Shown here in pieces: positions 21,908-57,665 of a stretch of DNA of 64,000 nt; the first letter of the stretch is position 1, and each line of letters starts with the position of its first letter. The position numbers and the translations under genes were made by a program. Source of the DNA: Cyanophora paradoxa CCMP329 (Eukaryota; Plantae; Glaucophyta); the NCBI GenBank assembly GCA_004431415.1, contig QPMI01000565.1, forward strand, positions 1 through 64,000, in the 5' to 3' direction. The notes beneath the pieces were generated by a model. It worked only from the letters and a program-made list of their open reading frames with translations. It searched no databases and had not been told where the DNA came from.

Positions 21908-21980
21908 ACACATATGAATATTCATATTTTAATCCTGAGGCGGAACGCCGAGGGATTAAAATATGAATATTCATATGTGT
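21908..21980. repeat. Terminal hairpin of A: perfect 28-bp arms with 17-nt loop
   Basis: ACACATATGAATATTCATATTTTAATCC / GGATTAAAATATGAATATTCATATGTGT. Confidence 0.95.
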
Positions 21981-24900
21981 GACGCGCAGCGCGAGTACTA
22001 CAAACTCGAGAACGAAAAGAAGCAATGGAGCGAGCTGAAAGACAAGGAAATGACAGAGGTCGCGGAGAAGAAGGCGGAAGCGAACAAGCTGATGACAGAC
22101 GCGCAAAGGCAGGAAGAGAGCGCCCTCACCGCGCTAAGGTCGGCAGAGCGCCAGGTCGCGGAAGAGCGCACGAAAATGATACTCGAAGCCGAGGAGGAGC
22201 TGAAGAGGATAAACGAGCAAAGGGAAGCCGCCAAGGCGAAAAAGCTCCAGGAAATTGAGGCGCTTACCGCGGGCACAGAGCTGCTCGAGGCGCAGAGGAA
22301 AGAGATCGAGGATAGGAAGAAGAAATTGGAAAAGGAGGCAGAGGCAAGGAGGCAGCTGCTGGAAGAGGAAGAGGAAACGAGGAGAAAGGCAGGAGAGCTG
22401 CAAACGGGCGCGGTGCAGGAGGCGAACAGGCTCCGGGAGGAGATCAAAAATTTAAAGGAGGCGGCCGAGCGAGCAGACGAGCAGTCGAAAAAATTCAAGG
22501 CCAACGCGGACGAGCTGGCGCAGAGGCTGCTCAAGTACGCGGCCACCGCAGAGGCACGCTCGCCCATGGGGACGGCCGAGACGCAGACCACACCGAGGCC
22601 CGACCCGAGGCCGGCGGCAGAGAGGCTACCCTTTGCGCGTCTGGGTAGGAGCGACCAGGTGAAAGAGCTCATCGGCCTCACGGTCGAGGACCAGAGGGCC
22701 CTCTTCGATGCGTTAGAGCAGCGGCGCAGGGCGGACGAGGAGGCGGTCGCCAAGACAGAAGAGGAACGACTGAAGGCAATGCAAACTGCATCGGACGAGG
22801 AATTCGCACGTCTCGAAGAGCCAAAGGTTGCGGGACGGAAGAGGGCCCTCGAGGCCTTCAAAAACAACACCCTCGATGCCATGGGGGCAAAGATGCGAGA
22901 GCTGAAGAGAAACGAATCGCGCAACGGCGAGAAAATACGAGCTCTCGGGGTTGACATTCGCGACTTCACATATGTGATGAATCAGCTGACGGGCAGGGGC
23001 CAGAAAGACGCGGAAGAGCTGAGGAGAAAGATGGCCGATGAGAAGTGGAAAAACTTTGAGCGCGCGTACGTGCAAAGGTACATCAGCGATGCCATCTGGA
23101 TAGCATACGGCGACGCGGAGGAGATGCACCGCGAACTGCGGACCGAAGCGAGCCTATGGCGGGGCGGCCTCGAATGGTCACTGTACCGGATGCAAAAGGG
23201 GGAGTTTCTGGCAGAGCTGCGAGCCAATCCGAAAACGGTGAGCATCGGCGCACAGAGCGCGTACGTCGGCATGGTCAATTACGTGGAGAAGCTGAGCAAG
23301 TTTTGGGAAAAGCGAAGAGCCGTCATTCCAGCGGAGGGTCTTGCACAGTACGACGCCATGGTGCGCGATCTGGAGGCCTTTAAACGTGAGCATCCACCCG
23401 CCAAATACAAGCTTTACATAGATACAACGGCGTTCATAGGCGAACTAAGGAAGAGAGGAGACGAGGCCAAGAGTCAGATCGAGGAGCGCTACAGAAAGGC
23501 CCAAGCGGACAAGGAGTACGCAAACAGGGTGATTGAAGAGCGGAAGCAGCAGGCGAAGGAGAACGCGGCGAGACGCAACGCCGAGATAGAAGAGCAGAGG
23601 AGGAAGATCGCAGAGCGCAAGGCGGCAGAGGAGGAGGCGAGAAAAACAAAGGTAGAAACAGAGTACCAAGCCTTGAAGCGGGAGGCCAATCAAATATTAA
23701 AACGAAGGGGAAGGGCGTACGCCGATGAGGGCGCGGGCGTCGGCTTGGCCAGCCCAGACGACATCACACTCGCGGAGAGGGACGACGTTTCCGTGGAGGA
23801 GATGCGCCCGGGCACCGCCCGCCTGCCCTCCGAGGGCGTGTTTCAGACGCTCGACAGGCGCGTGATGGGCGACTCGGACGTTATTTTGCGCAACGCCCTG
23901 ATGCCCTACGGCGACTGGAACCGCGCCACCGCCGACGCCCTTGCGGATTTCGACCTCGAGCGATTCACCACCAAAGAGCAGCGCGACGCCTACCTGGGGC
24001 GCCCGAGGGCAAGGCGGCCCGGGGTGGCCAAGGAGGCCCTCAGCGCCGAGACGCTCTTCTCCGCGATGGGTACGGCGAACAACGATGGCATGCCCTTTGG
24101 TGTGGCCGACCTCTTCCAGGGGGCGGGTATCGACCTGGTGGGCGCCGGGCTTGGGGGTACGGGCTCAAGGGCCGGCAGACGACTGGGGGCGGGGGCGACC
24201 GGCCTTGGGCTGACGGCACTGGGCGGGCTACTCTCGTCCTACCAAGCCCTGGAGAGCGGACAGATCACGCAAGCGCAGTTCATGGACAACTTCCGCGACA
24301 GCATGATCATGACCGTGGGCTCGTTTGGCCTTCAGCAGGGGCTCACGTCCGGCCTTCAGTTCCTGAGACCTGGCATGAAGATTGGGTTCGTGGGTGGCAT
24401 GGGCCTGTCGATCCTCGCAGGAATGATCGCCGGCGTCTTCGTGGACATCCTGAACAAGAGGGATGTGGGTACCATCATCAAGAACTTTTTTATGTACCCC
24501 ATCAACTGGGCAGCCGATACGATTCAGTTCATCGGCAAGATCGCGCAGGACATGGTCGAGTGGGGCATTGAGACCTTCGGCTCCGAGGCCGAGCAACTGA
24601 GGATGCGGATTCGGCGAATTGAGGGCGAGCTAGGCGACAACCCCATGGGCGTTTTTACCGGAAGGGGCGGCGACAACGGGGCGCTGAAACTCATCATGGA
24701 GATCGAAACGCTGAAGATGGACGCTGGAAACCAGAAGCAGCCCGAAAGCCTGCAGAAGTTCATCCACGCACTCGACAACGCAATCAACGATTACCGTACC
24801 CCCAAGGACCAGAAGACTCTGCTCGAAATTGATCGTGCAACGGTGCTATACCTGTCGCAGCTCACGGAAACAATGCAGGATGGGCTACTGGCCCTGAACA

Positions 24901-26240
24901 TTGGCCTAAAGCAGGTGATGCTGGATCTAAAGGAAATGATGACGGCGGAGGCCAAGAACAGGAAGCGCGTATTAATTGCGGTCTACCAGGAGGGCCTCAA
25001 CAGAATCAACCACATCGACGCCCTAAGGCGCGAATTCGGCTCGGCCATCCGTCACTCGGGCGTCTCGTCGAACGGAGGGGCGCAGGTGGCCCGCCTGGCG
25101 GACGCCAACTCGCGCCTCGAAATTCCCGGGACCTTCCGCATGCAGGATTGGTGGGAGGCCGGGGCCTTCAGGAACTACGGGGCCTTCATAGACAACGGGA
25201 TTAATTCGCAGAGCCCCAAGGCAAACTGGCTGGTACCCAAGGCGTACGTCGATAAATTGATGGACAGGCCCGCGGCACCCTACACCAAAAAGATCACCAA
25301 AGGCATCGAGTACTGGGCACCCTCGGCTGACCAGCCCGTCTTTGCCTCGCAGAATTACGAGTGGCACATGGCGCCAGGGGCGAGTCAGGCAGTCAGCACC
25401 GTGGGCGTAATTGCGCCTCAGCTGGCGACGGTGGCGCACACAGGTGAATACGAAGACCTGAAAGGCAAGCCAACGATACCGACTGTACCAACAACGTGGG
25501 GGTGGGATAGCATTACAGGCAAGCCGACGCAGACAACACGAAACGCAGCCCAGCTCGAGTACCCCGTGACCCAGCCCGTGAGCACCGTCGGCGTCGTGCA
25601 GCCCCGCCTGGCGACGGTTGCTTACACGGGTGCCTTTGCGGATTTGAGTGGCAGGGGGCACACGCACTCGCTTTCGGAGATAAGGGACTGGGCGGGGGCG
25701 CCAGATTTATCGGGGTACGCCCTCTCGACCCACAATCACGAAGGGGTGTATGCAACTGCAGGGCACGATCACGAGGGGACGTACGCCCCCTTCACCCACA
25801 GCCACACCCAGTACTCAACGACCGGTCACGATCACGACGATGCGTACGCTTCAAAGCGGAGGGTGAACGAACAGGCGTACGTTCAGACGGGGAAAACGTC
25901 GCGTATTCTTGGAAACAGAGAATACACAGACGGAGAAGTTGTGACAGCGTCGGGGTCAGAGACCTTTTCGATAGAGTACATGAATGACCCTTCCATTTCA
26001 CTCTCGTTCAAATCGAAGAGCGGATACAGCAGCTACTTTGATGTTGCTATTCTGGAAGCGCTGGACATCCCCTACGGTTTGGACAGCAACGGTAACATTA
26101 CCTACAGCACCGTCAAAGGATTTGGCTGGGTGCTGAAGCTTAAGTGCCGGGGTGGGGTGACCCTCGCAGGAGGCCCCTGGACGTTTGAGGTGCAGTGGAT
26201 TGCAGCGGGGCCACGACTGGAAGACCAACTGCTGGTGTAA
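21981..26240 (+). CDS. Giant coiled-coil/tape-measure-like protein with C-terminal tail-fibre repeats; 5'-truncated by insertion of A
   Basis: About 1420 codons open. The ORF-track start lies inside A's hairpin. Coiled coil, then Gly-rich hydrophobic helices, then YEDLKGKP, WDSITGKP and HxH repeats. Confidence 0.7.
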   Translation, partial: DAQREYYKLENEKKQWSELKDKEMTEVAEKKAEANKLMTDAQRQEESALTALRSAERQVAEERTKMILEAEEELKRINEQREAAKAKKLQEIEALTAGTELLEAQRKEIEDRKKKLEKEAEARRQLLEEEEETRRKAGELQTGAVQEANRLREEIKNLKEAAERADEQSKKFKANADELAQRLLKYAATAEARSPMGTAETQTTPRPDPRPAAERLPFARLGRSDQVKELIGLTVEDQRALFDALEQRRRADEEAVAKTEEERLKAMQTASDEEFARLEEPKVAGRKRALEAFKNNTLDAMGAKMRELKRNESRNGEKIRALGVDIRDFTYVMNQLTGRGQKDAEELRRKMADEKWKNFERAYVQRYISDAIWIAYGDAEEMHRELRTEASLWRGGLEWSLYRMQKGEFLAELRANPKTVSIGAQSAYVGMVNYVEKLSKFWEKRRAVIPAEGLAQYDAMVRDLEAFKREHPPAKYKLYIDTTAFIGELRKRGDEAKSQIEERYRKAQADKEYANRVIEERKQQAKENAARRNAEIEEQRRKIAERKAAEEEARKTKVETEYQALKREANQILKRRGRAYADEGAGVGLASPDDITLAERDDVSVEEMRPGTARLPSEGVFQTLDRRVMGDSDVILRNALMPYGDWNRATADALADFDLERFTTKEQRDAYLGRPRARRPGVAKEALSAETLFSAMGTANNDGMPFGVADLFQGAGIDLVGAGLGGTGSRAGRRLGAGATGLGLTALGGLLSSYQALESGQITQAQFMDNFRDSMIMTVGSFGLQQGLTSGLQFLRPGMKIGFVGGMGLSILAGMIAGVFVDILNKRDVGTIIKNFFMYPINWAADTIQFIGKIAQDMVEWGIETFGSEAEQLRMRIRRIEGELGDNPMGVFTGRGGDNGALKLIMEIETLKMDAGNQKQPESLQKFIHALDNAINDYRTPKDQKTLLEIDRATVLYLSQLTETMQDGLLALNIGLKQVMLDLKEMMTAEAKNRKRVLIAVYQEGLNRINHIDALRREFGSAIRHSGVSSNGGAQVARLADANSRLEIPGTFRMQDWWEAGAFRNYGAFIDNGINSQSPKANWLVPKAYVDKLMDRPAAPYTKKITKGIEYWAPSADQPVFASQNYEWHMAPGASQAVSTVGVIAPQLATVAHTGEYEDLKGKPTIPTVPTTWGWDSITGKPTQTTRNAAQLEYPVTQPVSTVGVVQPRLATVAYTGAFADLSGRGHTHSLSEIRDWAGAPDLSGYALSTHNHEGVYATAGHDHEGTYAPFTHSHTQYSTTGHDHDDAYASKRRVNEQAYVQTGKTSRILGNREYTDGEVVTASGSETFSIEYMNDPSISLSFKSKSGYSSYFDVAILEALDIPYGLDSNGNITYSTVKGFGWVLKLKCRGGVTLAGGPWTFEVQWIAAGPRLEDQLLV

Positions 26241-26263
26241 TGCTTTTTCTAAGTATCTGGTAA

Positions 26264-27085
26264 ATGTCCGTCGCTGTCCCTCTATTCACCTATGCCGCCA
26301 GCGTGAATCACAAGGCAGATCACACAATAAAAGAGACGGTCCTCGGCAACCAGGCCACCGAGACCCCCTACAACGCCACGGCCGTCCCCTTCTCCGAGGC
26401 CGATCTCGTCCGCGTCGGCGAGCTGCGCTGCGATAAGATGCGCACACGGGAGGGCGGGTCGGCCGTGCCGGGGCGCGTGAGGACGCAGAGGCTCACCGTC
26501 ACGAACGGGGCCTGGGACGGGAGTGGGTACAGCACAAACCAGATGGCCTTTAACGGGGCTGCCGATGGGGAGGGGAACGCGGCGCTGTACGTGCAGGGAG
26601 GGGGTGCCAATATCGTCGGCGGTGCGAGGGTCAACGGCGACGCAACGGTCACGGGCACGGTGACGACGAACGTAGTGAAGGCAAATCAGCATGAATTCAT
26701 GACCGTTTACGCACTCGGGGGAAACAATTCGGGCACTACTCTGGCTACGTACACAGGCTTCAACAGCATTATTCTAAACAGGTTGGGTGCTTCCACCATT
26801 TACAATGGACGATTCACGGCAAAGAAGGCAGGCATCTACCTGGTTGCCTTTTCCGCTCTCACGGCGAATTCCCCGGTCGGCAACACCGCAGAGGCGCAGC
26901 TGTGGAAAACAGGGAGCTGGACTGGCGTTCGCTGTTTCACAGAGCTCGCTGGAAGGCACGAGTGCATTGCGTTCACTATCTTCATCCAACTGAACGTGGA
27001 CGATTACCTGGAAATGAAATTACAAAACATTTGGGCAGACTCGTCCATGTTCTTTACGGTGGGATTAATCACAGCCACCGACTAG
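26264..27085 (+). CDS. Fibre protein with ELRCD anchor and C1q-like head
   Basis: VRVGELRCDK, GGGANIVGGARV, GRFTAKKAGIYLVAFS. Confidence 0.75.
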   Translation: MSVAVPLFTYAASVNHKADHTIKETVLGNQATETPYNATAVPFSEADLVRVGELRCDKMRTREGGSAVPGRVRTQRLTVTNGAWDGSGYSTNQMAFNGAADGEGNAALYVQGGGANIVGGARVNGDATVTGTVTTNVVKANQHEFMTVYALGGNNSGTTLATYTGFNSIILNRLGASTIYNGRFTAKKAGIYLVAFSALTANSPVGNTAEAQLWKTGSWTGVRCFTELAGRHECIAFTIFIQLNVDDYLEMKLQNIWADSSMFFTVGLITATD

Positions 27086-27087
27086 AA

Positions 27088-29175
27088 CTACATCAGCGCG
27101 TGTACAGCTGCAAGGTCGGTGATGGCGCTGTTGAATACGATAATGTCATCGACCCATCCGTTCCACCCGAACGTGCCCACCTCCGTCTCCGTTTCGCCTG
27201 CGCCAACACGGAAGGGGTGCTGGGTGTTGGGAAGGAAGCCGGAGTTGACGGAATAGGCCGTCCCGTTGCTCGTGAAGATGTGCGTGGTTCCGTTGTAGCT
27301 GCCAGCGAACTTATACTTCGTGTTGGCCGAGGAAGCGAAGTTGCCCAGCGTGTTCTGCCCCGGTCCCGGGGTCACCGTCCAGTGCTGAATCGCACCCGCG
27401 CTCGTCCTGTAAAACATGTAGCCGCCGGGGGTACCGCGCGAGGAGAGCGGCGACATGAAGTCCGCGGGGGATGGCGCCGACGTGAACAGACAGCTGAACG
27501 AAACCGTGAAAGGTGAAGTGTTGAACGCGGCCGTGTAGGGCACCTGCAGACTGGTTGTGTTTGCGTAGTTGAAAACGACCCTGCCCCCCGAGTAGGCCGG
27601 CTGCCTTGCCAGCGTGCTGCGGGCCAGGTCCCGCCCGAGGCCGCTCTGATCGTACATCTTCTGCACGGTGGCCGTGTACCCAGAAATCCAAGTGGCAAAC
27701 GGCGTCCCGCTTCGATTGTACGCGGTGTTCAGGTTGCCCGCCGCGTCGGCATAAAAGTCGGTAATGGTACCATCGCTTCTGCGCAGCTCGAGCGTAGGCC
27801 CCACGTACGCCGCCCGGAGCCTGCGGGTCGAATACCCCGCGATCGCCGCATTCTTGGTGGCCGTCGAAATGGTCGCTGCATCGAGCATGTAGCTGCCAAC
27901 CGGCGCTGCAGAGGAGCTGCTAGAGGGAGGGCCCTCCTCGCCAATCTGGTTCACACCCTTCACGGTGTACGTGTACGTCGAGCCGAAGTACGTGGCCACG
28001 TCCGAGTAGGGGCCCGAGCTCACGTTTGCGTAGAAGACGCCGTCCCTGTAAATGTTGTAGGAGGTCGTAACGCCAGTGGCTGGCGCCGACCAAGTCAGCA
28101 CAATGGGCTGCTCGGTGCCCGCCGCAGGGGCCGTGGCCACCAGCCCCGTGGGCGCTGCCGGATCCGTGGTGACGTAGGCGGCTATACTCTTCGGCCCCTG
28201 CCCTCCCGTGTTCGTCGCGGAGACCTGGTACTCGTACCCCGTACCCCAGACCGTGGTCGCGTCGCTGTACGAGTTTGTCACAGAGTCTACAAGGTAGGCC
28301 CCGTCCCTGTAGATCTTGTACCCCGTGGCCCCCGTGGAAGCGGTCCAGCTGATGCTGACGGGCTGCTGCTGGTCGTCTGGTGCCGTTGCAATTAAGGCTG
28401 TGGGCGCGTTCGGTATCGTCCAGACCAGGAGCGGATCAGACTTATCGTATTCTTCTGTGCCTATAATACCGGCCACCTGGTAGGAGTATTCCGTACCCCA
28501 CGTAAGGGCGGTGCTATCGTCAATGTACGAGGTAGATAGGGCGCTGCTTGCGAATCCGATGGGGGTACCGTCCCTGTAAATTCGAATCGAGTCCGCGCCC
28601 TCCATGGCCACCCAGTTGATTGTGACGACAATGGCGGGTTTCGGGAAGCCCGCAGAGGCGGGGCCGCCCCCTGCGATAAAATCGCCGTAGGTCTGGGCCG
28701 TGGCAGTCGTGAGCGTGGTGTAGGCTTCGATTGGAGGGTCGAAGCCGCCTACACCTTGGAAGGCAATGTAATTACTCATGGCACCCTCGTGCGTGTAGAG
28801 AAGGGTCTGCGTGTAGGTGGTGGGCGGGGCTCTACCATCCGAGCCGGTGCTGCTGCTGCTCTGTTCGCGCACGGCCGTCACACGGTAGATTCTGAAATCA
28901 CCCAAGTTGAAGGGCGAGTCCGTGTACGTGAGCGTGGGAGCGTTGACAGTGACCACCAGCGTCCACGGCCCGTCAACGTCATCGCCTCTATACACCTTGT
29001 ACTTTACGGCGTTGGTGACGGCGTTCCAGAACAGCTGAAATCTGTAGGTGCTGTCCCCGTTGCTGAATGTGTCGCCTGATCGGATCTGGGGCCTGCCCAC
29101 AGTCAGCGAGATCGGCTCCACGCCGTACTGCGGGGCCTGCACCACCTGTTTCTTCACGAATACGAAGCGGGGCAT
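27088..29175 (-). CDS. Fibronectin type III repeat protein with C-terminal ConA/LamG-like lectin domain
   Basis: About four W..YxIYRDG..Y.D..Y.Y.V units; YSTRRL..YDQSG segment; GWVDDIIVFNSAI LamG-like end. Confidence 0.75.
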   Translation of the reverse strand: MPRFVFVKKQVVQAPQYGVEPISLTVGRPQIRSGDTFSNGDSTYRFQLFWNAVTNAVKYKVYRGDDVDGPWTLVVTVNAPTLTYTDSPFNLGDFRIYRVTAVREQSSSSTGSDGRAPPTTYTQTLLYTHEGAMSNYIAFQGVGGFDPPIEAYTTLTTATAQTYGDFIAGGGPASAGFPKPAIVVTINWVAMEGADSIRIYRDGTPIGFASSALSTSYIDDSTALTWGTEYSYQVAGIIGTEEYDKSDPLLVWTIPNAPTALIATAPDDQQQPVSISWTASTGATGYKIYRDGAYLVDSVTNSYSDATTVWGTGYEYQVSATNTGGQGPKSIAAYVTTDPAAPTGLVATAPAAGTEQPIVLTWSAPATGVTTSYNIYRDGVFYANVSSGPYSDVATYFGSTYTYTVKGVNQIGEEGPPSSSSSAAPVGSYMLDAATISTATKNAAIAGYSTRRLRAAYVGPTLELRRSDGTITDFYADAAGNLNTAYNRSGTPFATWISGYTATVQKMYDQSGLGRDLARSTLARQPAYSGGRVVFNYANTTSLQVPYTAAFNTSPFTVSFSCLFTSAPSPADFMSPLSSRGTPGGYMFYRTSAGAIQHWTVTPGPGQNTLGNFASSANTKYKFAGSYNGTTHIFTSNGTAYSVNSGFLPNTQHPFRVGAGETETEVGTFGWNGWVDDIIVFNSAITDLAAVHALM

Positions 29176-29214
29176 TTTCCTCTACGATCCGAAAAAATAT
29201 CTGCCCCGGTGTAA

Positions 29215-29895
29215 ATGACTTCCAACTGGTACCAGACCCTCAAAGGTGATCTGGATGTTGGTACCAACGCCAAGGATTTCGCACGCATCTCCTCTGGCAG
29301 CTACGTGGACGTCTTCCTGCAGAATCCCGTCGTGATTCAGGCCGTTCAGAACGCCTATGCCACGCCCAAGATTTACTCCTATCAGCTCTTCTTCGACCCT
29401 CTGAGCCTCAGCGCAGAGGTAATCGAGCTGCTGCACGAATCAGGACTCGTGAAAAAGGTGGCACCTGCCACGGCCACTGCCAACGTCTTGCGCTGTCTCG
29501 AGGTCAAGTTCAGGGAGACGGGGTACGGCCCCACCGTGAACCGGTACCCCAGTTCTTCGAATCTTCCGGGCACGGGAGTCTACCAGATGAGGGGTACGCT
29601 CAAGGGCGACGCGCTCTTCACGAAATTCAATCCAAGTCCCGCGACCCTGGGGGCCCTCTACACGGGCGGCAACCCACGCGGCTCGACTCTACCCCGCTTC
29701 CCCTTCACCTTTTTCAGGTTCCAGGTCTTCCCCCTCTCCTACGCCGCCGACCAGCCCCACTTCAGCACGGGCGCCAGCCTCTGCGCGGAGCTGCGCGAGT
29801 GCTCGATTTCCTACGCGTACGGCACCGACGCGGACTCCGTGCCTGGGATCCGCGTCATGAACATCGGTGGCGACATCACCCTCTTTCACGGATAA
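29215..29895 (+). CDS. Beta-rich hypothetical protein, paralogue of 29919..30731
   Basis: Shared QNPV, SGLxKK, RxLExKF, PR..FTxFxF and G..L.AE motifs. Confidence 0.65.
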   Translation: MTSNWYQTLKGDLDVGTNAKDFARISSGSYVDVFLQNPVVIQAVQNAYATPKIYSYQLFFDPLSLSAEVIELLHESGLVKKVAPATATANVLRCLEVKFRETGYGPTVNRYPSSSNLPGTGVYQMRGTLKGDALFTKFNPSPATLGALYTGGNPRGSTLPRFPFTFFRFQVFPLSYAADQPHFSTGASLCAELRECSISYAYGTDADSVPGIRVMNIGGDITLFHG

Positions 29896-29918
29896 TCTTT
29901 CTCATTTGAGGTCGCAAA

Positions 29919-30731
29919 ATGCCGACCACCTCGGCCACCATCGTGAAGACCGTGTCTGCCGGCTCGATCGTCCCCGATTTCTACGGCAACGCTGGGAACG
30001 TGGCCAACGCAGGGACGGACAAGGTGGAGTGGGACGGAAACTACGCCACCCCGCTCACCGTGAGGGTCCAGAATCCCGTCATGTTGCGCGTCACCTCCAA
30101 CGATTTCGAGAATCCCGCCTCGTGCTCCGTGTACGTGTACTTTGACATCGACTCGGGCGTGAGCGCGGATGAGGCGGAGGCGCTCTGGCTCTCGGGCCTC
30201 CTGAAAAAGATAGAGCCCTCCGTCCCCGACAGGCCCGCGATTCGCGTGCTCGAGCTCAAGTTCACTGCGAACACCGCCCTCACTCGTAAGTTCACGAATG
30301 GTGCGAATCCGAACATCAAAACGCATTTAGATGGCGCCCTCATCGATGCCACACACAAGACCACGCAGGCCGTTCCCTTTGAGATGTACAACCTCTGGAA
30401 GATGACCGCAAAGGAGATGATGACGAATGCCACCACGGGCGGCGCCTCGGGTACCGATTATTCATACGGCGCCTCGAATCCCCGTACCCAGGTCTGGCCC
30501 CGGCTCCTCTTCACGAAATTCACTTTCAAATTGTACAACAACATCGCCGGAATGCCTACCTCTGGAATGGTCGTGGGCTCTACCCTCATGGCCGAAGTAA
30601 TTGAGGCAGAGGCGGACTACACGACTGCGACTACCAACTCGACAGCGCCAGGCGCCGGAGCCGAAGTTTACGTGGCCTGGGAAACGGTCGGTCGCGAGTA
30701 CGACACCAAGATTCACACCACTAGCGTCTAG
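29919..30731 (+). CDS. Beta-rich hypothetical protein, paralogue of 29215..29895
   Basis: Same shared motif series as 29215..29895. Confidence 0.65.
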   Translation: MPTTSATIVKTVSAGSIVPDFYGNAGNVANAGTDKVEWDGNYATPLTVRVQNPVMLRVTSNDFENPASCSVYVYFDIDSGVSADEAEALWLSGLLKKIEPSVPDRPAIRVLELKFTANTALTRKFTNGANPNIKTHLDGALIDATHKTTQAVPFEMYNLWKMTAKEMMTNATTGGASGTDYSYGASNPRTQVWPRLLFTKFTFKLYNNIAGMPTSGMVVGSTLMAEVIEAEADYTTATTNSTAPGAGAEVYVAWETVGREYDTKIHTTSV

Positions 30732-31086
30732 ACTGGCTAAGCTGCATTAGCGCCTGTGCCGCCTCCATCATCTCCCGAATCTCCTCGCTCTTCTCCTGTA
30801 AATTGGCGTACCCCCTCCTCTTCTTGCGAATATCCGACATTGATGCCCAGCGCAGGTTCTCCCTCCTGTAGTCCAGCGGGTTGCCGTTGATGTGTTCCAC
30901 GTAGCGTCCACGTGGCGACTTCCCGAGGATCAGTTGGGAGAGGTAGTGCTTGCGCCCTCCGAATGTCTTGCTCACCCTGTCCCTGTCCACTCTCCAGGGA
31001 AACTCCAAGGCACTCGGGGGTACGTCCGAGTTGACCAGGACGTTGTAGGCGACGTCTTGCGAGTCGGTGCACCGGAGCAGGGCCAT
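30721..31086 (-). CDS. HNH-family endonuclease (possibly inactive)
   Basis: VEHINGNPLDYRRENLRW; the usual DN is DY. Confidence 0.75.
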   Translation of the reverse strand: MALLRCTDSQDVAYNVLVNSDVPPSALEFPWRVDRDRVSKTFGGRKHYLSQLILGKSPRGRYVEHINGNPLDYRRENLRWASMSDIRKKRRGYANLQEKSEEIREMMEAAQALMQLSQSRR

Positions 31087-31108
31087 TTTGCCCTAGGTTC
31101 AGAAAAAC

Positions 31109-31622
31109 CTGGGACTTGGGACTTGGGACTTGGGACTTGGGACTTGGGAAGAGTTGAAACCCAGGTCCCGGCCCAGACTTTCTCCAGGATCAGAAATTTG
31201 TCAGACAAGTCAGGTGAGTTTTTCTACCGACTTTTTTACTCCTACCACCCCTCGTACTCTTTTTTACTCGTAGTCTTTTTTACTCGTATCCCATCTCGTA
31301 CCCTCCTTCTCTCGACATCTCGCACGAATACTCCTACCCCTCTTCACATCCTTTTTCGGTTGCATACTCTCGTGAGCTTTCATGTCCAGTATCATGCTAC
31401 AAGTCGTACGACAGTTCAGACTCTACCTCGCTTGAAATCTCACCTGGAATGTCACCAGAAACGTCGTATCCAGAATTCCGTACCCCTTTCTAAGTCTGCC
31501 CGGTGGTTAGGGACTTGGTGCAGCAAACTCTCAGATCCAGAGAAAGTCAGGGCCCAGACCCTGAGTCTAACTCTTCCCAAGTCCCAAGTCCCAAGTCCCA
31601 AGTCCCAAGTCCCAAGTCCCAG
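31109..31622. repeat. Imperfect ~95-bp inverted repeats capped by (GGGACTT)5 and (AAGTCCC)6
   Basis: Arrays at 31111-31148 and 31576-31620, with complementary inner flanks. Confidence 0.9.
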
Positions 31623-31694
31623 GATCGCGCCAAGTCACAACTGAATAGTCGGCCAATTTTTACAAGTATGTACAATGGAATGACGCAATACTAT

Positions 31695-32753
31695 TTACAG
31701 CATCTCAAAGTCAGAGTCATCGTCATCGGAAACCAAGTCAATCGGGGCCTCGGGCGCCGACTTAAGGGGAATGCGGGGAAGGGCCTGCGCTGCCTGCACT
31801 AAGTCCTGCCGCTCCTGCTCGCGCTGCGCCGCCAAGGCCGCTGCCGCCTCTGCCTCGCGCTGCCGCCGAGCCTCGATGCGCGCCTTGAGCTCGGCTGCCT
31901 CCTTCTGCTTGCGCTCGGCAATCTTGGCCAACGTCATCTCGCGACGAAGAAGGCGCTCGTGACGCAGCTTGCGCCGGAGTTCGGCCATTTCGCGCTTGGC
32001 GATGATGCGCTTCTCAATGGTCTTGACGTGCTGAGTCAGGCGCTTGGTGTAGTGTGACGTCACGCGAGAACGGGCAATGCCGGCGCCGAGCTTCAAGTCC
32101 TTCTCGTGTTCCTTGGTGGGGTTCTTGACGCGCTCGGAGTTGTCGGTGAATGACGTGGTCTCCATGAACTTCTTCTTGACGATTGACTTGGTCCTGATAA
32201 TGCGGCGCTTGCGAGTCGGGTTTTCGTTGTCGCCTTCAGAGTCAGAAGACGACTCAGAGTCGTATGGAATCGGCACGTCAAAGTCGATGAAGTCGTTGAT
32301 GTCAGACTCGGCGTCAGAGGCCTCGGACTTGGCGTCATCGGCGGGCTGAGGGGCGGGCTCGGCGACGGGCTGAGGGGCAGATGACGACGATGACGGAGGG
32401 GGGTAATTCGTGAAGACTTGAGGGGGGTAGGCCCAGGCGAGCGTCTCGGCGGCAGACTCGGCGAAAAGCTTGGGGTCGCCCCAGCCGTTGGCGGTCTTGA
32501 CCCAGCCCGGGACGGGGGGCACGTCGACGGGGGGCTCGGGCTTGGGCTCGGGCTTGGGTTGCTTGGACTTGGGCAGGAGGGCGGGTACAAAGTTGAGGTT
32601 GATGGTGCGGACGTTACCGTCGCTGTAAGCTTGGTAGCAGTACCCCAGATTGCGGGCACGCTTCTCCATTTCACGGGTAGGCCAATCGCGGGACTTAGTC
32701 CACATCTCGCGGGCCTTGGCAAGGTCCTCAACAAGCTCAGAGGGAAGCGACAT
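31695..32753 (-). CDS. Hypothetical low-complexity protein (Pro-rich, acidic, coiled coil)
   Basis: Long ORF with GC-rich third positions; likely start MSLPSEL. Confidence 0.55.
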   Translation of the reverse strand: MSLPSELVEDLAKAREMWTKSRDWPTREMEKRARNLGYCYQAYSDGNVRTINLNFVPALLPKSKQPKPEPKPEPPVDVPPVPGWVKTANGWGDPKLFAESAAETLAWAYPPQVFTNYPPPSSSSSAPQPVAEPAPQPADDAKSEASDAESDINDFIDFDVPIPYDSESSSDSEGDNENPTRKRRIIRTKSIVKKKFMETTSFTDNSERVKNPTKEHEKDLKLGAGIARSRVTSHYTKRLTQHVKTIEKRIIAKREMAELRRKLRHERLLRREMTLAKIAERKQKEAAELKARIEARRQREAEAAAALAAQREQERQDLVQAAQALPRIPLKSAPEAPIDLVSDDDDSDFEML

Positions 32754-33148
32754 CTGCGCAAAGGGAAAAGAGATCAGCAAAGGCAAAACGTGAGGTGACT
32801 GAGAGAGCGGACTTGTGAAAATTCGGAGAGGCAGGGTTTCCTTGGGCTGAGAGAAGGCGGCGAACCCGTTTCAAGAGTGAGGCAAAATGGCGGCGGACCG
32901 CGGTTTTGTTGCCGATTTTTTTCGCGGTCTAGTTCGCAACGGAAAACGTTGCCAACTGGCCTGAAAAAAGCCAAATTTAGCGTTGGACCAAAGACAGAAA
33001 AAGGAGCCGGCCTGACGGATTCAATGAATTCGCACACACCGAGACAATACGGCTAATGATAGAACTGAGTGACGGAAATTGCCCGAGTGTGTCCGCCGAA
33101 GGTCGAGTCTCGGATGGGGGGTACACCCTCAGGGGGCCCCCTGGCCCC

Positions 33149-33619
33149 TCACCCTGGTAGTACCCTCTCAAGGGGATTTTCGAAGCCGTACAATTCTTGG
33201 TAAGTCTCGTAATCCGGGCTGTACCCCCTCACAATCTGCGGGAGCCCCATTGAAAGCCTCCGTCTATCCTCTCTCAATTCCCTGCGGAAAAGTCTACGGT
33301 CTTCTCGAGCTTCGCGCGTCACGCCAGCTGGGCGTGGTCTATGATTGTTAGGGTTGTCGTAGCCTGGTCCCACCAGCCTCACGAAATTTTCGCGTATGGC
33401 CTCGGGGAGACTCTGGAAACGGTTCGTTGCGTGGAACTCGATCCATTCATTGAATCGACGCGGATATTGACGGATGACTTCAAGCACGCCCTGTGTGTTG
33501 GGCTCTGGTGTTATGTCGGGAATGTCATGTCCTGTGAGGTGCCAACGCCAGAACTCGCGCAGCCTCTCGAATGCCATATTCAACTCAAAGGGGAAATCGT
33601 AATAGAGATTGCCTGACAT
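33149..33619 (-). CDS. Hypothetical protein
   Basis: 156-aa ATG ORF just downstream of the third repeat array on the minus strand. Confidence 0.45.
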   Translation of the reverse strand: MSGNLYYDFPFELNMAFERLREFWRWHLTGHDIPDITPEPNTQGVLEVIRQYPRRFNEWIEFHATNRFQSLPEAIRENFVRLVGPGYDNPNNHRPRPAGVTREAREDRRLFRRELREDRRRLSMGLPQIVRGYSPDYETYQELYGFENPLERVLPG

Positions 33620-33667
33620 TTTTCTCCCCGTCCGAAAATTTCCCCGCTTCGAGTCCAGACTCTGATT

Positions 33668-33730
33668 CTAACTCTTCCCAAGTCCCAAGTCCCAAGTCCC
33701 AAGTCCCAAGTCCCAAGTCCCAAGTCCCAG
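33668..33730. repeat. Third heptamer array (AAGTCCC)7
   Basis: 33677-33728, with the same CTAACTCTT flank as the 31576 array. Confidence 0.9.
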
Positions 33731-34126
33731 GTCACATTTTTCTCCCATTTTGACTCGAGATTCTGACCAAGTCCAAATCCGGGCCCGGGATTCGAACCCT
33801 CGTTTTCGATCGATTTCACGCGTGAAAACGGCACTTTTCGGCCTTTTCCGATTTTTCCTTTCTCGCGATCGCATTAATGTCCCCGATCTCGAAATCGCGA
33901 TCGAAAAGGGTCGCGATCGGGAGAAAATCGCGATCGCCAGGGTCGCGATCGGCTCGTGATCGCCGCGATCGCCAGCCTCGGAGGGGGTACCCCCACAGCT
34001 GTTGCGGCGGTTATAAGAACCTCCGCAATCCAAGCGTCACTTCCGAGTCTCGAGCTCTCGGAGTTGACTTTTCGCGTTTGGCCCATTGATGGCCCTCCTA
34101 TATATATTAAGAGAGACAGAGGAAAA

Positions 34127-37955: not shown

Positions 37956-37977
37956 GTCTCTAATAAAACAGAGAAAA

Positions 37978-42019: not shown

Positions 42020-42048
42020 TCTTCTTTTATCTATATTTATATATTAAA

Positions 42049-44527: not shown

Positions 44528-44570
44528 CTTTTACTTATCAGGAATTTTATAAATCCATATAGTAAAAGCC

Positions 44571-47858: not shown

Positions 47859-47883
47859 TTAAGATTCTCACACTATTACAAAG

Positions 47884-48951
47884 ATGACCTCTCTATTAGA
47901 AATCCCAAACTATGAACTTGCAGCCAAATCACTCCACAGCACCTCTCATGAAGTAGTCGACTCTACACCCGGTTTTATTTGCACTGAAACTACAAGTAAT
48001 ACCTCTTTCACAGAGAACAGTATACTGAGGGTCAAAGAAATTCGATGTGATCGAAATGGAGGCAAGATTAGAACCACAGGAATAATTATCTCGAATAAAA
48101 ATCAGGTTCAAGCAGGTCAAGTAGTCCCCGATTCGTCAATATATGATAATGTGGGTGGATTCACCACAGCCCAGATAGTTACTTTTGGTAACACAAGCAA
48201 TAATTCCGCTCTTGTAGTTAAGAGTGGAGGGGCATACATTGGAGATGGAGCAAATGTAGCAGGAACTGTCACAGCAAATCAATTAAATGTGAGTGGGACA
48301 AGTAGTTTTGGTGGGTATATGAATTTCAATGGTGGGCTTTCAGGGAGTATTCAGTATGGAACTCTCACACTTACAACAAGAATAAATACACCTGAGATTG
48401 ACAACATGAGTGACACAGTCATGAATTACAAGAGGAATGGGGATACCATTCTTTCTCTTCAAAAAACTACTCAGACAGATAACACAACTGTTCAACATCT
48501 CACACTTCCGACAAGCAAATATCTCAAATTAAGTAGCCATCCTCGTTTCTTTGCAACAAAACAGCAACCAAATGGGTCAATAACTGCAACAATTTCCTCA
48601 ATAAATATATATCCAACAACAGGAGTCATAGTGAACCAAGGAAATCATTTCGATCCTGCGACAGGGCTTTTTACTGCCCCTGTTACAGGAAACTATCTTG
48701 TCACATTTAGTGGATCCTGTTATTGGACTGGAAGAACAACTAATATTGTTACATTTTTACAGAAAAACGGAAGCTCATCTGGAATTGAAGTGCATACTAA
48801 TTATGCATCTGCATATGCAAACAATGGGTTCGAAATTATTGTAGACCTTCAAGCCAATGATTCCATCAGAATATCATATAATAGCAGTGGTGGAGGTTCT
48901 ATATATTATAATATCAGATGGTTCTTTGGATGTATGCTTGTCCATTCATAA
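47884..48951 (+). CDS. Fibre paralogue 1: ELRCD-type anchor plus C1q-like head
   Basis: KEIRCDRN, SGGAYIGDG, GLFTAPVTGNYLVTFS. Confidence 0.8.
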   Translation: MTSLLEIPNYELAAKSLHSTSHEVVDSTPGFICTETTSNTSFTENSILRVKEIRCDRNGGKIRTTGIIISNKNQVQAGQVVPDSSIYDNVGGFTTAQIVTFGNTSNNSALVVKSGGAYIGDGANVAGTVTANQLNVSGTSSFGGYMNFNGGLSGSIQYGTLTLTTRINTPEIDNMSDTVMNYKRNGDTILSLQKTTQTDNTTVQHLTLPTSKYLKLSSHPRFFATKQQPNGSITATISSINIYPTTGVIVNQGNHFDPATGLFTAPVTGNYLVTFSGSCYWTGRTTNIVTFLQKNGSSSGIEVHTNYASAYANNGFEIIVDLQANDSIRISYNSSGGGSIYYNIRWFFGCMLVHS

Positions 48952-52883: not shown

Positions 52884-53036
52884 AGCATCTCCCCTTCATT
52901 CCCCAATTATAATTTAAGTGGACTCAAGGTTGACTCATATTAATCGTAAAAGTAGTAATAGTATATGGATTTTGTTACGAATTCAATGCAAGGGTTGACT
53001 AAGTGGGTTGAGTTGACTCAAATTTCACAGGAAATA
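52884..53036. repeat. Relic A-type terminal/iteron segment within B's terminal region
   Basis: Near-identical to 21151-21314. Confidence 0.85.
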
Positions 53037-53108: not shown

Positions 53109-53407
53109 GAGGTCCTTACTGAATATGGTATGTGTCACAGGTGTCACAGGTTTATCCCAAAGTTTCTCCTATAAAGAGTAAATTTCCAAAAGTTTGGGAT
53201 GGACCTGTGACACCTGTGACACTCGATTAAATCATTTATTCATTTAATTAGAAATACATAGATAAGATTATGACTGAGTTTTTCATTATAAAAGAGGTCC
53301 TTACTGAATATGGTATGTGTCACAGGTGTCACAGGTTTATCCCAAAGTTTCTCCTATAAAGAGTGAATTTTCAAAAGTTTGGGATGGACCTGTGACACCT
53401 GTGACAC
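53109..53407. repeat. Duplicated ~114-bp B-type iteron unit
   Basis: 53109-53222 and 53294-53407, each GTGTCACAGGTGTCACAGG...CCTGTGACACCTGTGACAC. Confidence 0.9.
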
Positions 53408-53660
53408 CCAATTATTCATTAAATTCCTAAGGGTCCCCCCTTAGACTCATTAAAACATGATAATAACATATCAATTTCATGTATAATTACGATTGAATTC
53501 AATAAGAGATCGATTTGTTTTATTAAACAAATGAATCTTTTATGGATCTTAATCGAGTTAAGCGATATGTTTACGATTAAATGAATTAAATTTAATTAAA
53601 TTTAATCGAGAAAGAACATGAATATAATATCGATTAAATCAATTAACAAAAAGACCAATC

Positions 53661-53688
53661 ACACATAGTAAAATGCGGAGTTTTAACC
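53661..53688. repeat. Inner 28-bp arm of B terminal inverted repeat
   Basis: ACACATAGTAAAATGCGGAGTTTTAACC; exact reverse complement at 57279-57306. Confidence 0.92.
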
Positions 53689-53723
53689 AGAGGCAAGATC
53701 TAATTGAGATTCAGTTATATTAT

Positions 53724-54094
53724 TGCGCTGAGCGGGATGCGCTAAGCAGTTGGCTAGGCCCAGAGGCGCCCCAAGCAGAGAGGGACAGGCCCGTACAGCA
53801 CCGTAGGGCGACGGCGAGCGGGTGCCATTACGTACACAGCAGGCGCAGAGCCGGCGTAAGACAGCAAGTAACAGGTACAGCGTAAGACAGTAAGTACAGA
53901 GAACAGGGACGAGAACGACAGCCAGCAAGCGAGCGCCGCGCAGGGCAAGCGAGGGCCCAGGGCTAAAATAAGCGGTCCAGTTGGCAACAACGTGGCACCA
54001 GGAATAGCAGGCTACAAAGGGTACAAGGCAAGGCAAGCTGCCGGCTTAGAGCCGACGACCAGGGCTAGCTGGGAGTCGGAAAGTGGGCGGCACA
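53724..54094 (-). repeat. 3' LTR
   Basis: Apparently identical to 56712-57082. Confidence 0.92.
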
Positions 54095-56711
54095 CGCTTC
54101 CCGCTACAAAAAGCCGTCCTCGGCGCTACGAGCTAAAGGCTGAACTAAAGCTGCGTAGGCGAGGCTGAACGGACTACGAGCCAAAAGCCGGCTACCGTCC
54201 CTGCACAGAAAGCCGTCCTCGGCGCCACAGCGGGCGGGCCAGAGGGGCAAATTAAAATCCATCAGGCCGTCGGCACCAGTATGAGGAACTGGGCCCAACA
54301 AGGAAAGTTGGGTGAGGGACCCACGACCTGACGCCAGAGCGCGCGGAGCGCCGCCAGCCAACCGGGGGCAAACCCTCTAAATCCCGCCGGAGGGGAAAAC
54401 CGGTTTGAACGAGTGCTAGCGCTAGCACTAAGCTCGAATTCGAAGCCGGCGCCGCGCCGCAAGCCGCCGGGCTGCGGCGGCGCCGGGTCGAAAGTTCCAC
54501 AGTGTAGAAGGTACTTGACGTAGAGTGTAGGAGTGTAGGACCGCAGGCTCGATCAGCAGAGCCGCAGCGGCAGAGTACGCGTTGCGGGCCAAGCTCGGCG
54601 CAGCTTGCCGCAGTGCGTTGCCAAGTGACTCGGCCAGCGGAGTCACGAAGCGGAGCGATCGGACAGCACAGTAGCGTGTGCAGCCGCGTACGCGTAGAGC
54701 AGGCAAGCCATGAAGAGTAGAAGCGGCGAGCCAGTCGTACGGGGTCAGGCTCCACAGCAGCAGCAGGCCACTGGTCGCATCATACAGACCCATCGCCAAG
54801 GATCCTCCGCGATCAGACGGGATGGCAAACCACGGATACAGCCATCGAGTCCGCCGGCATACGCTGATGCAGCGCGTAGCCGGGGCTTAGGCAGGCCACC
54901 ATCGCGGGACAAGAGACAGCATCAGCGCGGCCCGGAATGATCATCGGTGCTCGCGTGATAGTCGTAGGCAGACGTATGGACCTCTCAGCAGCGGAGAGTC
55001 GCAAGCGGAGGCTTGATCGGAAGCACCCGGACTAGAGCGCCGGTGCGTGCTGGCTTGGTCAGCGTGGAATCACCCACAGCTAAGCAGACCGAAACAGCGC
55101 TGGCGTCCAGCTGGCATCACCCAGCTGCCAGGTTCAACCGATGCACGGGAATCACCCGACGGGCCGACGCAGTCGACGCGCGAACGTGAAGACTGGTCGC
55201 GGGGCATCACCCAGTGCTGCTTGCTGACGCTCCTCAACAGATAGGTCCGCTGTCCGCCGTCCAACTTTAGCTATGGCTGCTCACGTCGTCGTAGGACGTT
55301 CCAGAGCGCATCCTTTACGCTTCTGATGACCTTCGCCCGCTGGACAGGCCTCGGTCAGACCTCCGCCCGCTGAACAGGCCTCGGTCGCTGATCAAACGCC
55401 CACGACAGGAAAGAACGACAGTCCGCACACGCTTGAGATGTGCGTGAAGCGACTGACATCTGGCTTGACGAGCTGGACGTCCCGGAGAAGGGCAGCTACG
55501 TCGTCGGAGCCAGGGCAAGGTCTTCGCATCTTGTCTGCCTTCTCGGTGCGACAGCGCGCACGGTAGACTGGACAACAGATAGATGCGCTTCCTCGCATAG
55601 AGATCGCTGTCAAGTGGAGCTGCGCCGGCTTCCACTGACGCGTACGCAACCCGCAGAGCCGAGAGAGACGCGGAGCCGCACGTCCTCTGGATGCAGGGTG
55701 GAGTCAAGTGGAGTGATCCTCACGAGGGATGCCACTCGCCGCCGCTGAGCGTGCCTCGGGAGGTCCGCAGGCGCCACAGCAGCCGTCGTAGTAAGACCTC
55801 GGGCGCGTACTGGGGCCATGTTATCCCAGGGGCTTTCACGTCGCAGCGGTTTGACTCCATGCGTTCTTCAGATACACTCGCCACCATTGAGCGTGCCTCG
55901 GGCTAGCCGGAGGTGCCATCGCAGCCGTCGTAGGTGAGACCTCGGGCGCGGACTGGGGCCATGTTATCCCAGGGCATTCACGTCTTGGCGGGCTGACTCT
56001 GTACTTTCTGCAGAGAGAAAAGATTGATTGACCGGCGCTTCATAGCTGCCTGGCGAGCCTGGCATGTCACGAGCATGCGGGCAACTCGACAAAACAAGAC
56101 GACGACGAAAAGAAGGTATGTTCATGAAGAATACTCATTCAGAGAGTTTCTATCATCATATGTCGCACAGTACGTGGACCAGAGAAGAAACGACATGCCA
56201 CGACGACAAGAAGGTCATCATTCGATCGGCGGCAACACGCAATTCGATCGTTATGACGACGTGTGTAGATGTAGAGGGTGTTGCTCCACATACAATACAT
56301 TTAGTAGTACGTTGTGGAGTCGTCCCCCGATACAATGCAATACAGTTTCACTCGACATGCGCGCGGGCTGCATCAGCATTTGCTCTTGAGCGCAGCCACG
56401 GCACGTTTAGGTGACTGTGAGCGCATGCGGCTCAATAGACGGGTTGGCGGACGCTTCCCACTACAGAAAGAGTGGTGCGCCGGGGCCGTAAGCAAGAAAA
56501 GGCGCGCGCAGTGGCGGGTGGAAAGGCATGAACCATGCGGTTCGCAAAGCCGAGCTCCGCGGCATAGGCGCTTCTCACTACAAGAGAGTGGAGGCCGTAC
56601 GCGCAAGCCGAGGCAAACGATGGCGTGCTTGTCCAGGGGTTCGGGCAAGAGCGCAGCGTTCGTCCCCAGGCATACGAGCTAAAAAGTCGAAGCCCAACGC
56701 AGCAGCCCCCA

Positions 56712-57082
56712 TGCGCTGAGCGGGATGCGCTAAGCAGTTGGCTAGGCCCAGAGGCGCCCCAAGCAGAGAGGGACAGGCCCGTACAGCACCGTAGGGCGAC
56801 GGCGAGCGGGTGCCATTACGTACACAGCAGGCGCAGAGCCGGCGTAAGACAGCAAGTAACAGGTACAGCGTAAGACAGTAAGTACAGAGAACAGGGACGA
56901 GAACGACAGCCAGCAAGCGAGCGCCGCGCAGGGCAAGCGAGGGCCCAGGGCTAAAATAAGCGGTCCAGTTGGCAACAACGTGGCACCAGGAATAGCAGGC
57001 TACAAAGGGTACAAGGCAAGGCAAGCTGCCGGCTTAGAGCCGACGACCAGGGCTAGCTGGGAGTCGGAAAGTGGGCGGCACA
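56712..57082 (-). repeat. 5' LTR
   Basis: Followed on the minus strand by the PBS-like TGGGGGCT. Confidence 0.92.
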
Positions 57083-57278
57083 TTATTCGGAATTTTATAC
57101 AGATTATCGATAGAATCAGTAAGACTAATCGGAAAATAAGAGAAATTTACGATAAAATATCGAAAAGAATACAAAATAATCGAAATAATTGAATATTCGA
57201 TAAGATATACACAGATTATCGATTGATTGAAATAGAATATACGAGATATATCAACAAAATCAATTAAGATAAGCCGAG

Positions 57279-57306
57279 GGTTAAAACTCCGCATTTTACT
57301 ATGTGT
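57279..57306. repeat. Outer 28-bp arm and terminus of B
   Basis: GGTTAAAACTCCGCATTTTACTATGTGT. Confidence 0.92.
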
Positions 57307-57592
57307 CTCTGATCAAACAGGGGCACCCCAAGCGACGGCGAAATCTTGAAAAGGATCACCTTGGCGTCGATTCCAGGAGTGTTTGCCAGGTTCTGCAAAA
57401 CGAAGAAGAAAATTTAGTTTCAAGCGGAAAGCTGACAGGTAATGTCAACGGAAACAAAGGCGAACCGGGAAAGCCTGCATAACCTTCAGAAGGAGCTGCG
57501 CCCCCTGAATAGCGGACGTTTCCTGCGCGCAATCGGCTTGCGTCAGCCTCTGAGCCTCCGGGCCACTTTCTGCAAAACTATTAGCTATAGTG
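57307..57592 (+). other. 286-bp target remnant between B and C, apparently two interrupted ORFs
   Basis: An ORF tail ending ..KTKKKI* is followed about 25 bp later by MSTETKANRE.., which is cut by C's terminus. Confidence 0.4.
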
Positions 57593-57665
57593 ACACATAT
57601 GAATATTCATATTTTAATCCCTCGGCGTTCCGCCTCAGGATTAAAATATGAATATTCATATGTGT
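57593..57665. repeat. Terminal hairpin of C
   Basis: Exact reverse complement of 21908-21980. Confidence 0.95.

Follow-up and report, generated by a model that had tools for sequence, protein, structure and literature searches.

Fold-back termini of Polinton-like virus elements in the Cyanophora paradoxa genome as possible hairpin telomeres

In parvoviruses, as exemplified by the inverted terminal repeat (ITR) of adeno-associated virus (AAV) and the left end of minute virus of mice (MVM), the duplex DNA contains an extended palindrome with an inner hairpin at the axis; the MVM left end, in addition, carries a mismatch ‘bubble’ near the axis and is kept in a fixed orientation. Among elements closer to those analyzed here, terminal palindromes have been reported for endogenous virophages as well as Polinton-like viruses (PLVs) in a preprint on Halocafeteria seosinensis (bioRxiv 10.64898/2026.07.28.741278, July 2026). 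According to the available part of that preprint, the palindromes occur in subtypes 1, 2, 5, and 6 of the virophages and also in subtype 4 of the PLVs, with a length of 52 nt in one subtype, lie inside terminal repeats next to target duplications, and go preferentially with particular rve integrases and with replicases other than the protein-primed polymerase B (pPolB). Hairpin priming is proposed there, as an untested mechanism, with accidental annealing after single-strand breaks given as the alternative (10.64898/2026.07.28.741278). In a full-text literature search, this was the one paper, as far as its accessible text goes, that links terminal palindromes with Polinton-like elements; the hairpin-priming idea is already in print for related elements. 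For Polintons, the accessible parts of PMC11296320 and of the same preprint describe ends made of plain inverted repeats, hundreds of bases long, and the former, an entomopoxvirus PLV paper, ties PLV end modules to poxvirus terminal repeats. Here, we analyze a window of 64,000 nt from the glaucophyte Cyanophora paradoxa CCMP329 (assembly GCA_004431415.1, contig QPMI01000565.1, positions 1 to 64,000, forward strand), in which three virus-like elements, denoted A, B, and C, with ~39% GC, are embedded in DNA with 60% GC. As an earlier note on this DNA, made from the letters alone, had claimed, every visible end of these elements bears an inward-facing copy of its own 28-nt tip. We tentatively interpret these fold-backs as hairpin-forming telomeres of integrated Polinton-like virus genomes, seen in extended form, and rate this reading at somewhat below an even chance. 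What is new here is the split palindrome with a conserved, oriented mismatch, the long-spacer variant, the compensation test, and the co-occurrence of pPolB remnants.

The elements and the short host segment between two of them are arranged as follows.

Element A: starts before position 1 and runs to 21980
Element B: ~34100-57306
Host spacer between B and C: 57307-57592, without strand, 286 nt, single-copy, with two haplotypes in the sequencing runs
Element C: 57593 to beyond 64000, inverted sister of the right part of A

One terminus per element lies inside the window. The 1394 nt that adjoin the ends of A and C are 99% complementary, and further blocks of these two elements match at 94-99%. 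Element B is inverted relative to A (A 1175-11870 vs B 37465-47145, 88-100% identical), and the inverted match continues between A 1-507 and B 47874-48398 at 88%, so that the right end of B is the counterpart of the left end of A, outside the window.

The visible termini consist of the following parts.

21908-21935, plus strand: inner arm of A, 28 nt, with the ACACATA tip facing inward, preceded by AATC
21936-21952, plus strand: loop of A, 17 nt, TGAGGCGGAACGCCGAG (TGA-GGCG-GAA-CGCC-GAG), with a 3x3 mismatch, a 4-bp GC clamp, and a GAA tip
21953-21980, plus strand: outer arm of A, 28 nt, with which the element terminates as ...TATGTGT, followed by a 60% GC flank
53661-53688, plus strand: inner arm of B, 28 nt, AATC before, AGAGGC after
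53689-53723, plus strand: left part of the B spacer, reaching the TTAT target duplication of a retroelement
53724-57082, plus strand: long terminal repeat (LTR) retroelement inside the B spacer, foreign to the fold-back
57083-57278, plus strand: right part of the B spacer, rich in ATCGA/TCGAT (35.5 per kb), ending in GCCGAG
57279-57306, plus strand: outer arm of B, 28 nt, the element terminating at 57306
57593-57665, minus strand: fold-back of C, 73 nt (outer arm 57593-57620, loop 57621-57637, inner arm 57638-57665)

The 73-nt unit of C is the exact reverse complement of the A unit (21908-21980), and the sequences quoted in the earlier note for both termini (28-nt arm, 17-nt loop, exact complement) are all in place, as are the 16-nt palindrome in the A/C arms and the GGCG-GAA-CGCC mini-hairpin in the loop of A. 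The B arms (53661-53688 and 57279-57306) form a perfect 28-nt inverted pair, the core of which is not palindromic, unlike that of the A/C arms; with the LTR insert removed, the B unit amounts to 283 nt and the spacer to 227 nt, flanked by AGAGGC and GCCGAG, in agreement with the original description. In both arm types, pairing ends exactly at 28 nt, with an outward extension of only 2 nt, in A. The recurrence of these sequences in the window is far from random: at least eight matches to the A arm, and at least two to the B arm, were each reached by 0 of 100 shuffles. The end of A has a predicted folding energy of -34.7 kcal/mol vs -8.2 +/- 2.3 kcal/mol for shuffled sequences (z = -11.5; 0/200), and the 283 nt of B fold at -52.2 vs -16.5 +/- 3.2 kcal/mol (z = -11; 0/100 mononucleotide shuffles). 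The 227-nt spacer of B on its own is also more structured than its shuffles (-21.2 vs -11.3 +/- 2.5 kcal/mol).

The design of the fold-backs is conserved across arms that differ in sequence. In an ungapped comparison, the A-type and B-type arms agree in 19 of the 28 positions and differ in 9, and all 9 differences are matched in the partner arm because both arm pairs are perfect; set against the Halocafeteria report, in the part available, it is the presence of two sequence versions that permits this compensation test (9/9 matched). Common to the two types are the AATC before the inner arm, the ACACATA tip, and, where the arm ends on its inner side, TTTTAA(T)CC. The loop flanks are kept as well, NGAGGC beside the inner arm and GCCGAG beside the outer one, and when folded yield a 3x3 mismatch (NGA opposite GAG) closed by GGC/GCC, which in A continues into GGCG-GAA-CGCC. 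With respect to the element body, this asymmetry points the same way in all three elements (3/3). Thus, the claim that arm length, tip, AATC, and loop-flanking hexamers persist while the arm core varies and stays perfectly paired holds, and uncompensated arm mismatches, which would speak against it, are absent from the window. In a variant table that leaves out positions near contig ends, where the arms sit, the arms show no variant letter at a 2% share, compared with 7 variable positions in the B spacer and 3 in the body of C.

We then placed these units relative to host DNA using four public runs, dated 2012, 2019, and 2024, that were examined as assembled short-read contigs; 20 of the 24 listed public runs of one organism label contain the end of A wholly or partly. 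A host-like, GC-rich flank directly follows the outer tip in A and B and directly precedes it in C. The host spacer between B and C (57307-57592) has a depth of ~46-152 that is divided between two haplotypes. The contig of the second haplotype matches the window from 57307 on and has unrelated GC-rich sequence before this position in 4/4 runs; this haplotype joins at 57307 without B, and the last position of B is exactly 57306. The B-less allele's left flank was looked for in the 64-kb window and is absent there. The same haplotype departs from the window sequence at 57579, ahead of C; because it lacks B and diverges before C, both insertions are heterozygous or polymorphic and, accordingly, recent. 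Contigs that carry different GC-rich flanks break off at 57593 (two distinct ones), 57591, and 57590 and, on the B side, at 57309 and 57310, which, with the window copies included, gives at least 6 insertion sites for the A/C tip and 3 for the B tip. One GC-rich loose end, behind 57667, is ambiguous, given that the palindromic arm can map in either direction. Contigs identical to the window span the junctions at 57281-57380 (run X1) and 57501-57619 (runs X5 and X7); a long-read assembly artefact is ruled out, given that short-read contigs of other runs cross both junctions unchanged. The 73-nt and 283-nt units are the outermost parts of the elements, exactly at the element-host boundary.

All three B-type flanks start with CTC (57307-57310, with the loose ends behind 57309 and 57310), whereas the A/C-type flanks vary; the CTC after the B tip could reflect a target preference or three extra bases of the element.

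The arms are present in very many copies, their depth being ~290-350x that of the host in 4/4 runs, where summed contig depth is not copy number. The depths of the two arm types are similar across the four runs (16324/30982/14347/49815 vs 29630/39862/13507/49129). Given the similar arm-to-host ratio over 12 years, inherited insertions fit better than a varying load of free virus.

The retroelement that interrupts the B spacer is 3.36 kb long, with 61% GC, identical 371-bp LTRs (TG..CA), and a 4-bp TTAT duplication. It is non-autonomous, an ORF search of 53724-57082 having found none above 121 aa, and the run depth suggests that it is present in tens of copies. Contigs that skip the LTR element across the joint 53718->57082 reach depths of 2878, 3411, 3220, and 410 in the four runs, so the usual B-type end is the 283-nt form. 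In other copies, the A/C-type loop is itself split by an unrelated second sequence (loose end behind 57628 in runs X1, X2, and X7), the start of which was not found within the window.

Inward of the fold-backs lie dense arrays of short palindromic repeats.

21681-21906, plus strand: subterminal array of A, four ~30-nt palindromic units (TTAATCGA..TATNGATATAA..CGATTAA) at 55-nt spacing
57666-57894, minus strand: subterminal array of C, same as that of A
53480-53660, plus strand: subterminal ACGATTAAAT-type repeats of B, partly alignable with the array of A

The last unit of the A array abuts the inner arm. ATCGA/TCGAT motifs occur at 23-35 per kb near the arms and in the B spacer vs 2.5-3.1 per kb in the element bodies, a density that makes the ends look origin-like. 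In A, 115 nt further in, there is a third, degenerate sequence resembling the arm (21840-21862), with 87% identity to the outer one.

The genes relevant to replication, integration, and packaging are the following.

12935-14961 in A, plus strand: separate ORFs for a PriCT_2 primase and a DUF5906 helicase-type protein
34592-36640 in B, plus strand: fused Prim-Pol/D5_N/DUF5906 primase-helicase, 682 aa
15922-19056 in A, plus strand: broken protein-primed polymerase B gene with an endonuclease VII/HNH-like insert
60677-63830 in C: broken pPolB gene, C copy
59337-60698 in C, minus strand: intact rve-type integrase, 453 aa, 1.7 kb from the fold-back
19060-20441 in A: broken copy of the rve integrase
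9812-10594 in A, plus strand: packaging ATPase, A32-type, E = 8.9e-12
38741-39523 in B, minus strand: packaging ATPase, B copy, assigned from DNA similarity to A

Primase-helicase genes are thus found in both A and B. The pPolB remnants (PF03175) were detected at A 18044-18802 (E = 3.5e-5) and C 61701-62099 (E = 7.8e-5), with scores of 23.3 and 22.2 bits, under the 25.8-bit Pfam cut-off, and with broken frames in both elements; a Pfam scan showed none in the visible part of B. The Pfam match of the integrase is weak (21.7 bits vs the 32.6 cut-off), 5888 library proteins are related to it at E <= 0.001, with PF00665 carried among the matches listed, and its nearest relatives are one 77% match followed by one that is 36% identical. 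Accordingly, the Polinton label used in the earlier note stands only in part: the pPolB remnants of A and C and the rve integrase agree with it, whereas the primase-helicase genes, and the PrimPol-D5-helicase without pPolB in the visible part of B, do not. The morphogenesis part is common to A and B (88-100%), and the replication modules are unlike (34592-36640 vs 11870-19056); judging from the sequences, A vs B is a case of replicase replacement.

Compared with the Halocafeteria elements, as described in the available part of the preprint, the palindrome likewise lies at the extremity of an integrated small DNA virus, beside host DNA (the last outer-arm position is 21980 in A and 57306 in B, the first one is 57593 in C), rve integrases and primase-type replicases recur, here with pPolB remnants in A/C in addition, and the host genome is similarly rich in elements, with other transposons nested inside them. 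The differences, within the same limits, are that the Halocafeteria palindromes are of 52 nt and were sought with a gap limit of 10, whereas the arms here are split by a 17-nt loop or a 227-nt spacer, and that the Halocafeteria host has 47-48% GC vs the 60% GC flanks here. With parvovirus hairpins, the ends of A, B, and C share the terminal palindrome, the mini-hairpin at the axis, the near-axis mismatch, and the fixed orientation; unlike parvoviruses, however, these are double-stranded DNA (dsDNA) elements of ~20-27 kb with integrase and primase-helicase genes and candidate capsid genes, an HUH Rep nickase was not found among the ORFs scanned, and there is no evidence of single-stranded packaging. 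The AT-rich, incompletely paired terminal hairpins also resemble the covalently closed telomeres of poxviruses, asfarviruses, and chloroviruses, which serve end replication; in those viruses, the ends are resolved from concatemer junctions with a palindrome spanning the entire terminal region, flip/flop occurs, and a virus resolvase is required, none of which was seen here. The rve integrase, the pPolB remnants, the packaging ATPase, and the subterminal sequence common to the ends, a 130-bp block described below, are shared with Polintons/Mavericks, a group with long terminal inverted repeats and a 6-bp target duplication, from which the present elements differ in that every visible tip itself folds back.

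If the fold-backs are hairpin telomeres, the outer arm of a linear DNA that is single-stranded or has been freed would fold onto its inner counterpart and would prime or complete end replication, re-copying one arm from the other. The integrated form would then be the ‘extended’ duplex of a terminal hairpin, as is the parvoviral palindrome in the duplex replicative form. The asymmetric 3x3 mismatch (NGA opposite GAG), together with the GGC/GCC clamp, might serve as a recognition or resolution site that fixes the orientation of the loop, the ...TATGTGT-3’ tip could be the end joined to the host by the rve integrase, and the adjoining palindromic ATCGA-type repeats may bind a replication or integration protein. 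A more specific version of this scheme, which we consider unlikely, is a ~25-kb capsid-encoding dsDNA virus with parvovirus-like hairpin telomeres of fixed orientation, in which the mismatch bubble would direct asymmetric resolution and the genome would be heterotelomeric, with a 73-nt hairpin at the integrase end and a 283-nt, repeat-filled hairpin at the other.

Several observations weigh against hairpin telomeres. The earlier note counted A, B, and C as three cases; all three are present, but A and C are sister copies (97-99% identical), so that there are two independent arm sequences rather than three. Moreover, given the inverted order of B with respect to A, the two versions of the arm may belong to the two unlike ends of a single family and not to two lineages. 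Between A and C, the 73-nt unit shows 0 differences vs 4 in the adjoining 248 nt, which is not significant. At the opposite boundary of B (~34100), the arm was searched for and none was found. Classical hairpin transfer predicts both loop orientations, and the hairpin reading therefore has to assume asymmetric resolution: the flip/flop inversion suggested earlier did not materialize, with NGAGGC facing inward and GCCGAG facing outward in all three elements (3/3 in one orientation). The loop of C is oriented like that of A relative to the body, so this pair provides no evidence of flip/flop, and no alternative orientation appeared among the matches listed (best 24 of 168 and 24 of 58 loose-end rows), where a flop of the 73-nt unit would be invisible because the 28-nt arms nearly equal the 31-letter word of the contigs; nor can contigs show the ends of free viral DNA molecules. 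Among the ORFs scanned with Pfam and PHROGs, several of which matched no family, there was no HUH nickase, RuvC/A22-type resolvase, or protelomerase; nuclease-type matches were limited to GIY-YIG and HNH genes of the homing type and to a weak domain resembling endonuclease VII. Protein priming, to which the pPolB remnants of A and C point, requires no hairpin. Finally, perfect arms could also result from selection for one protein that binds twice.

This last point leads to a rival explanation under which the 28-nt arms are an inverted pair of binding sites for the rve integrase or a partner protein, the inner site helping the assembly of the integration complex or serving as a spare end, and arm identity would be kept by the fit to the same protein rather than by base-pairing. 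Doubtful as we consider it, this possibility has much that would suit it: conserved stretches (tip, TTTTAA(T)CC) are interspersed with a variable core in the manner of a protein footprint, 28 nt is a usual length of terminal repeats in DDE-type elements, the 16-nt palindrome of the A/C arms would suit a dimer, and the degenerate third copy in A (21840-21862), the integrase gene 1.7 kb from the end of C, and the fixed loop orientation (3/3), as befits a static site, all point the same way. Paired sites leave unexplained, however, the central mismatch with its GC clamp and the spacing of 17 or 227 nt, the core of B is not palindromic, and mobilizable solo units are predicted, whereas the solo 73-bp or 283-bp units proposed earlier are absent from the 64-kb window, the run contigs being unable to resolve them. 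Protein priming proper, in which the tip would be the origin for replication by the element’s own polymerase B, with the ACACA repeat allowing sliding back and the palindrome rebuilding a duplex origin on the displaced strand, appears quite unlikely. For adenovirus and phi29-type replication, a slide or jump back is established where the ends are reiterated, both arm types share a short dinucleotide repeat as their tip, and A and C do retain pPolB remnants; but the pPolB matches are under the Pfam cut-off and come from a gene that is broken in both copies, the same design occurs in the visible part of B without pPolB, and a snapped-back 3’ end would conceal the origin from the terminal protein. 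The Halocafeteria preprint, in its available part, also ties palindromes to non-pPolB replicases (10.64898/2026.07.28.741278).

The remaining alternative is that the fold-backs are functionless by-products, with one accident of fold-back copying or repair per lineage inherited by the descendants. Accidental annealing is named as an alternative in the accessible text of the Halocafeteria preprint (10.64898/2026.07.28.741278), perfect arms could merely be young, and a distant relative discussed below (L006) has repeats at both contig ends without a terminal palindrome. Such accidents are very improbable, in our estimate, in view of two sequence versions that agree in the arm length of 28 nt, the tip, the inner block, and the loop flanks with their orientation, the great abundance of the units in 4/4 runs, and the similar ends reported, in the part of the preprint at hand, for several subtypes of another protist’s elements (10.64898/2026.07.28.741278).

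Searches for relatives of these ends elsewhere yielded little. Scans of viral_contigs and metagenome_contigs for the terminal motif, of viral_contigs for the subterminal repeat pattern, and single-protein locus scans of viral_contigs (integrase, ATPase) returned no match. A 5-sequence integrase alignment retrieved 57 loci, 11 of them viral and 46 from metagenomes, at 21-35% identity, with one match of 29 residues reaching 48%. Only one of the 57, the metagenome contig L018, has a palindrome at the contig end, a perfect 25/3/25 structure (L018:1-53), together with a distantly related integrase at 25% identity; this palindrome overlaps the start of the integrase and is either genuinely terminal or produced by the assembly. 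In L006, both contig ends bear terminal repeats, and a palindrome is lacking. Relatives of this kind are too distant, and contig ends too unreliable, to count either way.

Additional conserved sequences are scattered through the elements. One block of 130 bp recurs with 98% identity in A, B, and C (21186-21314, 52907-53036, and 58259-58387), with surroundings that differ; it contains GGGTTGACTAAGTGGG..GAGTTGACTC, with related motifs at 15240, 21348, and 58182, and is a candidate regulatory or promoter signal. Palindromic GTGTCACAGGTGTCACAGG motifs are located at 53114-53222 and 53299-53407, near the right end of B, and at 36961-37006, behind the primase-helicase gene, and might bracket the replication module of B.

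The elements also encode a patatin lipase, a repeat-rich fibre protein, C1q-domain proteins, and a GIY-YIG gene. An HNH homing endonuclease at A 8804-9745 (phrog_559, E = 2.6e-70; DUF4379 zinc finger), which B lacks at 39460-39576, looks, from this comparison, like a mobile gene within the element. Two adjacent ORFs, 7338-7739 and 7770-8702, together match one 456-aa protist protein from EukProt (63% and 55% identity), a size that would fit a major capsid protein; they are a candidate without a family or structure match. The capsid candidates come solely from Atlas leads (V18/19-like): the candidate ORFs have no PHROGs match, searches against solved-structure sequences gave nothing useful, and two single-sequence folds had a mean pLDDT of 33.6 each.

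Between A and B lies one further segment of distinct composition.

21984-34100: GC-rich block between A and B, 12 kb, 60% GC, with densely packed ORFs

It contains intron-free ORFs of 1425, 273, 695, 226, 270, and 352 aa, with C1q and fn3 domains, and may be a separate GC-rich viral element rather than plain host DNA. The 1425-aa frame begins within the outer arm of A, so A seems to have interrupted a longer gene. Arrays of the heptamer CCCAAGT occur in the same block at 31107-31158, 31554-31621, and 33655-33736, one of them inverted.

Polinton-like viruses and virophages make up several per cent of some protist genomes, and the fold-backs described here bear on the question of how those among them that lack a working protein-primed polymerase copy the ends of a linear genome. 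For a hairpin strategy otherwise known from parvoviruses and poxviruses, the matched arm changes and the oriented mismatch offer concrete targets for mutation. For genome annotation, the fold-back is a marker of the exact element boundary, which palindrome screens restricted to short gaps would miss in its form with the 227-nt spacer.

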